Shown: piece by piece, positions 3,715 to 50,302 of the stretch | How positions within the stretch are numbered: position 1 is the first letter of the stretch | How the letters are laid out: each line of letters starts with the position of its first letter | Translations under genes and position numbers: made by a program | From: Escherichia coli | Lineage (GTDB): Bacteria > Pseudomonadota > Gammaproteobacteria > Enterobacterales > Enterobacteriaceae | DNA: 64,000 bases | Assembly: GCF_003334305.1 (NCBI RefSeq) | Contig: NZ_QOWS01000002.1 | Direction: 5' to 3' (one strand) | Notes under the pieces: model-generated | Told to the model about the DNA's origin: nothing | What the model saw: only the letters and a program-made list of their open reading frames with translations | The model's database searches: none

Positions 3715-4788
<1,074 letters not shown>

Positions 4789-11954: not shown

Positions 11955-12062
11955 TTACTTCCGGTTACGCCACCAGCCGACAATCGCTGCGGTAATAATC
12001 CCCGCCAGGATCGGTGCTGCCAGGTCGTGCCAGAAAATCATGGCAAACTTCGCGAGCGTCAT
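11955..12062 (-). CDS. ldr: Ldr type I toxin, 35-aa membrane peptide (copy 1)
   Basis: Reverse-strand ORF ATG..TAA translates to MTLAKFAMIFWHDLAAPILAGIITAAIVGWWRNRK; below the track size cut-off; followed by hairpin and T-run at complement(11873..11905). Confidence 0.85.
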   Translation of the reverse strand: MTLAKFAMIFWHDLAAPILAGIITAAIVGWWRNRK

Positions 12063-12490: not shown

Positions 12491-12598
12491 TTACTTCCGG
12501 TTACGCCACCAGCCGACAATCGCTGCGGTAATAATCCCCGCCAGGATCGGTGCTGCCAGGTCGTGCCAGAAAATCATGGCAAACTTCGCGAGCGTCAT
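12491..12598 (-). CDS. ldr: Ldr type I toxin, 35-aa peptide (copy 2)
   Basis: Identical 108-nt ORF displaced by 536 nt. Confidence 0.85.
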   Translation of the reverse strand: MTLAKFAMIFWHDLAAPILAGIITAAIVGWWRNRK

Positions 12599-14604: not shown

Positions 14605-14761
14605 AACCGGTAGCTTAGTTAAAGCTATTCGTGCGGTGTTGCCTTGCAAGTGGTCCGTGGATTGCATATTGTCCCGTTAGTGGTTTCAAAATGAGCAGTA
14701 AAAATGTCCGGAAGACACCAAAAAGTTGTCGCAGGGAAGTATGCAGTGGCGGAGGTGTAAG

Positions 14762-15457
14762 GTGATAACGCGTGATTTCTTGATGAATGCCGATTGTAAA
14801 ACGGCATTTGGTGCCATTGAAGAATCACTCTTATGGTCAGCAGAACAACGGGCGGCTTCGCTGGCGGCGACGCTGGCTTGTCGACCTGATGAGGGACCGG
14901 TGTGGATCTTCGGTTATGGATCGTTGATGTGGAATCCGGCACTGGAGTTTACCGAGTCGTGCACCGGTACACTGGTTGGATGGCATCGCGCATTTTGCCT
15001 GCGCCTGACCGCCGGGCGCGGGACTGCGCACCAGCCGGGACGGATGCTTGCACTGAAAGAGGGCGGACGCACCACAGGCGTCGCCTATCGACTGCCAGAA
15101 GAGACGCTGGAGCAGGAACTAACCCTATTGTGGAAGCGCGAGATGATTACCGGCTGTTATCTGCCAACCTGGTGTCAGCTTGATCTTGATGATGGACGCA
15201 CAGTAAACGCCATTGTGTTTATTATGGACCCGCGACATCCAGAATATGAATCTGACACTCGCGCTCAGGTCATCGCGCCGTTGATTGCGGCGGCGAGCGG
15301 TCCGCTGGGAACCAACGCACAATACCTGTTTTCACTGGAACAGGAGCTTATCAAACTGGGAATGCAGGACGATGGGCTGAATGATTTGCTGGTATCGGTA
15401 AAAAAACTGCTGGCGGAGAATTATCCGGATGGTGTGTTACGGCCGGGATTCGCCTGA
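14762..15457 (+). CDS. chaC: Glutathione-specific gamma-glutamylcyclotransferase ChaC
   Basis: Track ORF (243 aa) trimmed to GTG at 14762 giving (M)ITRDFLMNADCKTAFG..., 231 aa; contains YGSL motif. Confidence 0.88.
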   Translation: MITRDFLMNADCKTAFGAIEESLLWSAEQRAASLAATLACRPDEGPVWIFGYGSLMWNPALEFTESCTGTLVGWHRAFCLRLTAGRGTAHQPGRMLALKEGGRTTGVAYRLPEETLEQELTLLWKREMITGCYLPTWCQLDLDDGRTVNAIVFIMDPRHPEYESDTRAQVIAPLIAAASGPLGTNAQYLFSLEQELIKLGMQDDGLNDLLVSVKKLLAENYPDGVLRPGFA

Positions 15458-15500: not shown

Positions 15501-15854
15501 TTAAAATGTGAGCACTTTATCGGCTGACAGCGTCCATTGCGCCAGTTCCACAAGAGTACCGATTTCCACCCCATCAATAAGAGGAAGTGTGCTAATCCCG
15601 CGCCCGTCGGTACAGGTTTTGCACAATTTCACCGGTACATTCTGAGCGGTAAGGATCTCCAGCATTTGCTGAATGTTGTAGCCTTCCACTGGTTTTTGCC
15701 CGCGCAACCCGGCTGTGACCGCATCAGACATCAGGAACAGACGCAGATCCAGATTGCTCTCCTGCTCTCGTAACGCAATGGCCAGCCGCAAGCTGTTAAA
15801 CAAGGATTCGCTCCCGTAAGGTGCGCCATTGGCAACGATCACGATTTTTTGCAT
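15501..15854 (-). CDS. ychN: DsrE/DsrF-like protein YchN
   Basis: Track ORF 117 aa MQKIVIVANGAPYGSESLFNSLRLAIAL... Confidence 0.85.
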   Translation of the reverse strand: MQKIVIVANGAPYGSESLFNSLRLAIALREQESNLDLRLFLMSDAVTAGLRGQKPVEGYNIQQMLEILTAQNVPVKLCKTCTDGRGISTLPLIDGVEIGTLVELAQWTLSADKVLTF

Positions 15855-15871
15855 TATTTACTCCTGTATTC

Positions 15872-15966
<95 letters not shown>

Positions 15967-15976
15967 AGACAAAAGT

Positions 15977-16016
<40 letters not shown>

Positions 16017-16038
16017 ATTACCGGAAGTTACCGACGTT

Positions 16039-17433
16039 TTGAGCCGTTTCGTTCCTCGCATTATCCCGTTTTATTTACTCTTGCTTGTAGCAGGCGGTAC
16101 AGCTAACGCACAATCTACCTTCGAGCAAAAAGCGGCAAATCCCTTTGATAATAACAATGATGGTCTGCCGGATTTAGGCATGGCTCCCGAAAATCATGAT
16201 GGGGAAAAACACTTTGCTGAAATTGTGAAAGATTTCGGCGAAACCAGTATGAATGATAACGGGCTGGATACTGGCGAGCAGGCAAAAGCTTTCGCATTGG
16301 GAAAAGTCCGCGACGCGCTTAGTCAACAGGTTAATCAGCACGTAGAGTCCTGGCTATCACCGTGGGGAAATGCCAGTGTTGACGTCAAAGTGGATAACGA
16401 AGGACATTTCACCGGCAGTCGTGGAAGCTGGTTTGTGCCGTTACAAGATAATGATCGTTATCTCACCTGGAGCCAGCTTGGTCTTACTCAGCAGGATGAT
16501 GGGTTGGTGAGCAATGTGGGCGTTGGGCAACGCTGGGCGCGCGGCAACTGGCTGGTGGGTTATAACACTTTTTATGACAACTTGCTGGACGAAAATCTTC
16601 AGCGAGCGGGCTTTGGTGCCGAAGCGTGGGGCGAATATTTGCGACTATCGGCAAACTTTTATCAGCCGTTTGCTGCATGGCATGAACAGACAGCCACGCA
16701 GGAACAACGGATGGCGCGCGGGTATGACCTGACAGCCCGGATGCGCATGCCGTTCTATCAACACCTCAATACCAGTGTCAGCGTAGAACAGTATTTTGGT
16801 GATCGTGTTGATTTGTTTAACTCTGGTACGGGTTATCACAATCCCGTCGCGTTGAGTCTGGGATTAAATTACACCCCTGTGCCATTAGTCACTGTGACGG
16901 CCCAGCATAAACAGGGTGAAAGTGGCGAGAATCAAAATAACCTCGGGCTGAATCTTAATTACCGCTTTGGTGTACCGCTCAAAAAACAACTTTCTGCGGG
17001 CGAGGTTGCCGAAAGTCAGTCGTTACGTGGTAGTCGCTATGACAATCCGCAGCGAAATAATCTACCGACTCTTGAGTACCGACAGCGAAAAACGTTAACG
17101 GTGTTTCTGGCGACACCTCCGTGGGATCTAAAACCTGGCGAAACAGTGCCACTGAAATTACAAATCCGCAGTCGTTACGGTATTCGGCAACTGATTTGGC
17201 AGGGCGATACGCAGATATTAAGTTTAACGCCAGGCGCACAAGCCAACAGCGCGGAGGGCTGGACGCTGATCATGCCTGACTGGCAGAACGGGGAAAGGGC
17301 GAGCAATCACTGGCGATTGTCTGTGGTGGTGGAAGATAACCAGGGGCAGCGTGTCTCCTCCAATGAGATCACGCTAACGCTTGTCGAACCGTTCGATGCA
17401 TTGTCAAACGACGAACTGCGCTGGGAACCGTAA
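16039..17433 (+). CDS. ychO: Putative invasin/intimin-family outer-membrane protein YchO
   Basis: Track ORF 464 aa starting at TTG with signal-like N-terminus; start codon choice uncertain. Confidence 0.75.
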   Translation: MSRFVPRIIPFYLLLLVAGGTANAQSTFEQKAANPFDNNNDGLPDLGMAPENHDGEKHFAEIVKDFGETSMNDNGLDTGEQAKAFALGKVRDALSQQVNQHVESWLSPWGNASVDVKVDNEGHFTGSRGSWFVPLQDNDRYLTWSQLGLTQQDDGLVSNVGVGQRWARGNWLVGYNTFYDNLLDENLQRAGFGAEAWGEYLRLSANFYQPFAAWHEQTATQEQRMARGYDLTARMRMPFYQHLNTSVSVEQYFGDRVDLFNSGTGYHNPVALSLGLNYTPVPLVTVTAQHKQGESGENQNNLGLNLNYRFGVPLKKQLSAGEVAESQSLRGSRYDNPQRNNLPTLEYRQRKTLTVFLATPPWDLKPGETVPLKLQIRSRYGIRQLIWQGDTQILSLTPGAQANSAEGWTLIMPDWQNGERASNHWRLSVVVEDNQGQRVSSNEITLTLVEPFDALSNDELRWEP

Positions 17434-18084
17434 TCAGAAAATGCGCTCCTGATGCACCCATACCGCTGCTTCCACGCGAGACTTGAGCTTCATTTTCTTC
17501 AGCATGTGCTTGACGTGCACTTTTACTGTGCTTTCGGTGATGTCCAGGCGGCGGGCAATCATCTTGTTCGGCAAACCCTGGGCAATCAGCTTGAGAATAT
17601 CGCGCTCGCGTGGGGTTAACTGGTTAACATCGCGCTCAGTAGTGGCACGGTTAGCACGCAAGCTGGCGGCCAGAACAGGCGTTAATGCTTCGCTTAATAC
17701 CATTTCGCCAGCAGCTGCCTGATGCAATGCTTTCAGCAGATCTTCCGGTTCCATATCTTTTAACAGATAGCCATCCGCGCCGCGTTTCAGTGCGGTGACC
17801 ACATCTTCTTCATGGTTAGAGACGCTGAATACCACAATGCGCCCTGAGAGGGACTTTTCGCGCAGTTTATCCAGCGTTTCCAGACCGTTCATGCCGGGCA
17901 TATTGAGATCTAACAGGATCAGATCGGGATCAAGAGACTCCGCCAGTTCAATACCCTGTTCGCCATTACTCGCTTCGCCAACCACGGTGATATCTGGTGC
18001 CATGCTGATAAGCTGTTTTACGCCAGTTCGCAGCATCGGGTGATCGTCAATCAGCAGGATAGTAGCCGGTTCCTGATTACTCAT
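17434..18084 (-). CDS. narL: Nitrate/nitrite response regulator NarL
   Basis: Track ORF (254 aa) trimmed to ATG at complement(18082..18084) giving [25 protein letters not shown]..., 216 aa; receiver plus LuxR-type HTH. Confidence 0.95.
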
Positions 18085-49850: not shown

Positions 49851-50147
49851 TCAGAACACTTTCTTAAATGGTTTCACTGAAACGTGTTCATAGACTCCTG
49901 CCGCTACGTACGGGTCAGCATCGGCCCAGGCCTGAGCTGCTTCCAGCGATTCAAATTCAGCAATAACGGTTGAGCCAGTAAATCCCGCAGCCCCTGGATC
50001 GTTACTGTCTACCGCTGGCATTGGACCAGCTGTCAACAAACGACCTTCATCATGCAGTAACTGTAAACGTGCTAAATGTGCCGGACGAACGGAAAGGCGT
50101 TTTTCGAGGCTATCAGCTTTGTCTTGAGCGTAAATAACATACAACAC
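49851..50147 (-). CDS. yciI: YciI-like protein
   Basis: Track ORF trimmed to GTG giving (M)[24 protein letters not shown]..., 98 aa. Confidence 0.85.
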
Positions 50148-50302
50148 GGGCACAACTCCTTGTTCGGGAAAGTTGTAAAGTACGTTATTTGAAAGGGCGA
50201 AGATCTGCAACGGAAAGATGATGTCTTTGTTAAGACCATGCATAAATTAAGGTCAATTACGCCAAAAATGACATTTTCACTGATCCTGATCGTCTTGCCT
50301 TA

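Follow-up and report, generated by a model that had tools for sequence, protein, structure and literature searches.

Support for a TTG initiation codon and a signal peptide in ychO, a minimal inverse autotransporter gene of Escherichia coli

The window, that is, the whole stretch of 64,000 nucleotides that was analysed, is a segment of the Escherichia coli chromosome running from pth to yciO, and it includes the prs, hemA, cha, nar, opp, tonB, and trp genes. The annotated gene order around ychO is chaB, chaC, ychN (minus strand), ychO, narL (minus strand), and narX (minus strand). The initial annotation had placed ychO between the cha and nar genes, and this placement was borne out, with chaBC-ychN on one side and narLX on the other. 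The 1.7 kb around ychO showed 100% identity to strain A7 and 99.2% identity to K-12 derivatives. This 1.7-kb region was found in 5423 of 5426 complete E. coli genomes, and a full-length, intact ychO open reading frame (ORF) was found in 5421 of the 5426. The TAA stop codon of ychO (17431-17433) abuts the TGA stop codon of narL (17434-17436, minus strand), and the two genes are convergent with an intergenic distance of zero, which leaves no space for terminators. The ychO-narL pair is among the excludon candidates detected by RNA-seq (PMC12288877). Elsewhere in the window, two copies of the Ldr type I toxin genes lie at 11955-12062 and 12491-12598 (minus strand), where K-12 and A7 have three (ldrA, ldrB, and ldrC), and the kdsA-chaA interval is 534 bp shorter than in A7. 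A single tRNA-Tyr gene is present at 29020-29104 (minus strand), at the site of the tandem tyrT-tyrV pair of K-12 and A7, and this site is 119 bp shorter than in A7.

The features of the ychO locus are collected in Table 1. Both the ORF list and the sequence confirmed that the longest ychO frame opens at the TTG at 16039, as was first noted. The 13 codons between the in-frame stop (ending at 15999) and this TTG contain no ATG, GTG, TTG, CTG, ATT, or ATC in the ychO frame, and the later in-frame start-type codons are a TTG at codon 15 and an ATG at codon 48. The alternatives to be weighed are, thus, these two downstream codons and an ATG at 16004, which in this strain is out of frame.

Table 1. 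Features of the ychO locus, in window coordinates.
Feature	Position	Strand	Basis or remark
In-frame TAA opening the ychO frame	15997..15999	+	13 codons before the TTG
Out-of-frame 12-codon upstream ORF (MVFHYYRKLPTF, then stop), probably not functional	16004..16042	+	TGA overlaps the TTG (tTTGA)
Polymorphic T-rich tract, TTATT in this strain and TTTTT or TTTTTT elsewhere	16015..16019	+	Alignment
Weak Shine-Dalgarno-like GGAAG	16023..16027	+	11 nt before the TTG
ychO initiation codon TTG, best-supported start	16039..16041	+	RefSeq, genome conservation, orthologues
Predicted Sec signal peptide, codons 1-24	16039..16110	+	Hydropathy, charge, (-3,-1) rule
ychO coding sequence, YchO/YchP-family inverse autotransporter	16039..17433	+	464 codons, then TAA; same coordinates annotated in A7
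In-frame TTG, codon 15, rejected alternative start	16081..16083	+	Inside the hydrophobic core
In-frame ATG, codon 48, former annotated start (417 aa), rejected	16180..16182	+	No signal peptide after it
Inverse autotransporter beta-domain, residues 64-341, 12-strand barrel and linker	16228..17061	+	Pfam PF11924, E=4.9e-103
Single C-terminal Ig-like passenger domain, residues about 353-450	17095..17388	+	AlphaFold2 model

Over residues 5-454 of its 464, the protein matches NCBIfam NF007556 (YchO/YchP family invasin, an equivalog) with 800.1 bits (cut-off, 508). It is the same protein as K-12 b1220 of that family, with 99% identity and the same locus between ychN and narL, and nothing of substance differs between the two. 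A profile built from 45 orthologues matched the crystallised beta-domains of Yersinia invasin (4E1T, E=5.8e-61) and of EHEC intimin (4E1S, E=6.9e-50). The full-length AlphaFold2 model, which is of low confidence (pLDDT 57.5) and was used only for superposition of the barrel, contains 12 strands at residues 111-306 and superimposes on 4E1T with a TM score of 0.88. When residues 345-460 (the C-terminal 116 residues) were modelled alone, a beta-sandwich with a mean pLDDT of 85.3 was obtained. The best PDB match of this domain is intimin D00-D0 (6TQD; E=1.2e-5, 23-24% identity), and a Pfam search returned neither Big_1 nor any other match for it, so that its assignment as Ig-like is one of fold.

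YchO is, thus, a minimal inverse autotransporter, in which the signal peptide is followed by a short periplasmic segment (residues 25-100), the 12-strand barrel and its linker, and one Ig-like passenger. The signal peptide, 12-strand beta-domain, linker, and Ig-like passenger are common to the type Ve proteins, Yersinia invasin and EHEC intimin (4E1T, 4E1S, 6TQD). The YchO barrel shares 34-39% identity with those of invasin and intimin, with TM scores of 0.86-0.88, and the C-terminal domain resembles intimin D00. Unlike these proteins, YchO has a single Ig-like domain and lacks the tandem Big repeats, the C-type lectin tip, and LysM (PMC4787180). Pfam searches of YchO detected no LysM and no lectin domain; the score against the intimin model NF033627 was 185 bits, compared with a cut-off of 1400, and the identification of YchO as an intimin was rejected. 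SinH (NF033423) resembles YchO in the N-terminal region and the barrel, where its model scores 245 bits over residues 11-357. This score lies far under the cut-off of 999 bits set for SinH, itself a protein of 730 aa with several passenger domains. A literature search for YchO together with the term "inverse autotransporter" gave nothing relevant.

Such an outer-membrane barrel has to pass through the inner membrane, and YchO, therefore, needs a signal peptide. The initial annotation had stated that the choice of start decides whether one is present, and this proved correct. Candidate starts were compared by a heuristic based on hydropathy, charge, and the (-3,-1) rule, rather than by SignalP or another trained predictor. 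By this heuristic, an n/h/c layout was obtained from the TTG at 16039 and from none of the other forms compared. Its n-region, MSRFVPR, carries a net charge of +2; its h-region, IIPFYLLLLVAGG, has a mean hydropathy of 2.83 over ten residues; and its c-region, T-A-N-A, is followed by a predicted cleavage site after Ala24 (ANA|QS). Initiation at the codon-15 TTG was rejected. The product would begin with MLVAGGTANA, which has no n-region and a mean hydropathy of 1.03, and the codon is preceded by no Shine-Dalgarno sequence (+0.7 kcal/mol). The codon-48 ATG likewise failed the comparison. A lipoprotein reading was also rejected, as the E. coli YchO signal peptide contains no Cys. The same layout, judged by the same heuristic, is conserved in 79 of 80 orthologues, and codons 2-24 evolve with pN/pS values of 0.5-0.66 between E. 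coli and other Escherichia or Citrobacter, as expected of a signal peptide. Residues 1-24 would, on this evidence, act as a Sec signal peptide that is probably cut after Ala24. After export to the periplasm, residues from about 103 to 342 would form the 12-strand outer-membrane barrel with its linker, and the single Ig-like domain (about 353-450) would be the passenger that is threaded to the cell surface. Mutant phenotypes in an avian pathogenic strain lend indirect support to such surface exposure and to an adhesin or invasin activity (PMC4787180).

If translation began at the first in-frame ATG, at codon 48, the product would be the 417-aa protein given in earlier annotation. No start codon is more common than ATG, this one was deposited for years as the start of a 1254-bp gene (PMC4787180), and neither of two published initiation-site data sets shows a peak at the ychO TTG. 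The product is, however, difficult to reconcile with an outer-membrane barrel. It has no signal peptide, its N-terminus carries a net charge of -7, and its maximum hydropathy is 0.45; the early remark that no near in-frame ATG provides a signal-like N-terminus, thus, holds. Moreover, when E. coli was compared with other Escherichia or Citrobacter, purifying selection was evident at codons 25-47 (pN/pS 0.12-0.24), which this start would leave untranslated. These values are near those of the barrel (0.06-0.14), which indicates that the codons are coding. The NPFD and LPDLG motifs, both upstream of Met48, are nearly invariant among orthologues, and 24 of 79 orthologues have Leu or Ile in place of Met48 itself. 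The codon-48 ATG also has no better Shine-Dalgarno pairing (-3.3 kcal/mol), and the INRI-seq study that lacks a peak at the TTG lists no alternative ychO site either. Initiation at codon 48 is, therefore, scarcely credible. The same conclusion was reached independently in 2016 in a study of an avian pathogenic strain, which found that a 141-bp segment encoding the signal peptide was missing from the deposited 1254-bp ychO and restored it (PMC4787180); the TTG start agrees with that restoration.

The TTG at 16039 is supported by annotation, by conservation within the species, and by orthologues. RefSeq begins ychO at this codon in six strains, namely A7, MG1655, O157:H7, a BL21-type strain, and two others, and the MG1655 gene (b1220; NP_415738.2, version 2) encodes 464 aa. 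A 35-nt site centred on the TTG was matched by megablast in 5416 of 5426 complete E. coli genomes. Since the megablast seed is an exact word of 28 nt, and any such word within a 35-nt query spans the TTG, the codon is intact in all 5416 matching genomes. For comparison across species, one genome was taken per species, which gave 80 loci, and each frame was walked back to its upstream stop. At the homologous position, every Escherichia, Citrobacter, and Salmonella locus (24 species) reads TTG-AGC-CGT (Met-Ser-Arg), with the TTG about ten residues ahead of the hydrophobic core. Most Citrobacter have an in-frame TAA five codons 5′ of the TTG (gTAAGAAGcc..GAT TTG), so that no other start in these species would keep the core, and the TTG is also the only candidate in several Enterobacter (hormaechei, cloacae, and wuhouensis). 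In 44 more distant species, among them members of Leclercia, Kosakonia, Pseudocitrobacter, Siccibacter, Cedecea, Phytobacter, and Trabulsiella, an ATG is found at the same or an adjacent codon, 7-10 residues ahead of the core. The 80-locus comparison, thus, supports the TTG and does not favour a shorter protein from a downstream start, an outcome that had been considered when the ambiguity was raised. From the position of the TTG, its conservation, the selection acting on the frame, the homologies, and the agreement among annotations, we infer that ychO is translated from the TTG at 16039 as a 464-residue precursor with a signal peptide, to which a probability of roughly 0.9 was assigned.

The sequence just upstream of the TTG differs among strains. 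A T-rich tract 20-24 nt upstream of the codon shows a single-base length polymorphism (seen also in the loci L084 and L085); the TTATT allele of the window is the same as that of K-12, as opposed to the T5 or T6 alleles found elsewhere. In O157:H7 and BL21-type strains, the extra T (TTTTTT) shifts the upstream ATG into the ychO frame and creates a notional 476-aa product. The exact T6 allele was present in 1603 of 5418 E. coli records (about 30%). This raised the possibility that the ATG at 16004 matters in both settings, by coupling re-initiation here through a 12-codon ORF whose stop lies on the TTG (UUUGA), and by starting a 476-aa protein in the T6 strains. The stop of the upstream ORF does fall exactly on the ychO TTG, the in-frame allele is widespread, and some metagenome gene callers pick the upstream ATG (P0002 and the 9936-sequence cluster P0003). 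The ATG is, however, absent from E. whittamii, from Escherichia sp. E1V33, and from one representative of the E. coli clade, and it has no equivalent in Citrobacter, where the stop precedes the TTG by five codons. Its SD-like AAGG is merely 2 nt away. The 12-residue extension, MVFHFLPEVTDV, would add two acidic residues and cancel the charge of the n-region (net 0). RefSeq retains the TTG start even in strains that have the upstream ATG in frame, and PGAP does so in T6 strains. As a 1-nt indel that shifts the frame is tolerated just 5′ of the TTG among E. coli strains, this region is not coding, and the 12-codon ORF, which is not conserved outside E. coli, is probably fortuitous. A role for the ATG at 16004 is, therefore, very unlikely, and the extension in T6 strains is, judging by sequence comparison, most likely untranslated. 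A promoter and terminator scan of positions 15800-16250 returned one promoter-like match, in ychN, and one weak hairpin. Shuffled sequence gave as many, and the scan, therefore, did not fix the transcription start with respect to the upstream ATG.

The translation signals that accompany the TTG are weak. Its best anti-Shine-Dalgarno duplex has an energy of -4.1 kcal/mol, whereas the 24 annotated genes of the window that were scored have a median of -7.4, and the motif is kept as GGAAG, GGAAA, or AAGAAG in Escherichia and Citrobacter. The combination of a TTG with a weak Shine-Dalgarno sequence suggests a low translation efficiency. RNA folding revealed no stable structure in the initiation region (z=+1.4), and a structural switch at the ychO start was rejected on the same grounds. 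It is unlikely that the TTG and weak Shine-Dalgarno sequence, kept in Escherichia, Citrobacter, Salmonella, and part of Enterobacter where relatives have ATG, are a selected device for very low or conditional translation; under such a scenario, the T5/T6 tract might be a natural source of variation in expression, with YchO more abundant or differently targeted in O157 and BL21-type lineages.

Published initiation data were consulted for the TTG. In INRI-seq, which used a synthetic transcript covering ychO from -30 to +150 (PMC9825163), the entry at 1273784 has 0 reads at the TTG in all five of five in vitro replicates (PMC9825163 Table S2), and the transcript was scarce in that experiment, at 19.8 CPM. 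The in vivo Ribo-RET column for the same codon is also 0 (PMC9825163 Table S2), and no alternative ychO site is listed in Table S3 of that study (PMC9825163). The supplements of the TRAINSPOTTER N-terminomics study contain no entry for ychO, b1220, or P39165. With a scarce transcript and no site detected anywhere in the gene, the published data are uninformative, rather than negative. Weak initiation would be the simplest reading of the zero reads taken together with the weak Shine-Dalgarno sequence.

The same zero counts, in vitro (with the 19.8 CPM transcript) and in vivo (PMC9825163), are what would be expected if ychO were silent or decaying in commensal E. coli and translated from no start at all, and the pairing of a TTG with a weak Shine-Dalgarno sequence points in the same direction. 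Disrupted forms also occur. In other E. coli strains, database variants carry an internal tandem duplication (556 aa; P0001) or in-frame deletions in the barrel (427 and 405 aa; P0004 and P0008), and ychO is split into two places in one genome (H40). Against this stand the strong purifying selection on the barrel across genera (the pN/pS of 0.06-0.14 given above), the intact full-length ORF in nearly all genomes (5421 of 5426), and the reported effects of a ychO deletion on adhesion, invasion, and motility in an avian pathogenic strain (PMC4787180). That ychO is silent or decaying is, therefore, highly improbable, and the variants and the split gene resemble sporadic decay, in particular lineages, of a gene that is conserved elsewhere.

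The frequency of non-ATG starts in the window was determined by mapping all annotated coding sequences of A7, and then those of the curated MG1655 genome, onto it. GTG starts were found, in both RefSeq A7 and MG1655, for eight genes (pth, dauA, prs, chaC, ychJ, ychE, kch, and yciI) and TTG starts for two (ychO and rnm, also called yciV). The initial annotation had correctly listed prs, chaC, ychJ, kch, and yciI as GTG starts and yciV as a TTG start, and had missed the GTG starts of pth, dauA, and ychE. It had also put forward the several non-ATG starts as a feature of the window. With about 88% of starts being ATG, and hence 12% non-ATG (PMC9825163), the probability of observing at least 10 non-ATG starts among the 62 annotated genes is 0.21; at a background of 17%, it is 0.62. 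The proportion is, thus, ordinary and not above chance. At three of these genes, the longest ORF runs upstream of the annotated GTG, from 4662 to 4728 for prs (to an ATG), from 14726 to 14762 for chaC (to a TTG), and from 50147 to 50243 for yciI (to an ATG). RefSeq and MG1655 use the internal GTG in each, so that a longest-ORF rule would mis-call all three.

The description of the ychO start as an open ambiguity is, in consequence, outdated, as the 2016 study (PMC4787180), RefSeq, and MG1655 already settle on the TTG. This start is the current reference annotation and nothing new, and the present comparison confirms it, leaving unchanged the understanding of the YchO protein family and of translation initiation. 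The choice of start nevertheless determines what the protein appears to be. A start placed 47 codons late makes a secreted outer-membrane adhesin look cytoplasmic, an error that older records and the annotations of some strains retained, and in strains with the T6 allele gene callers still disagree, between 476 aa and 464 aa.
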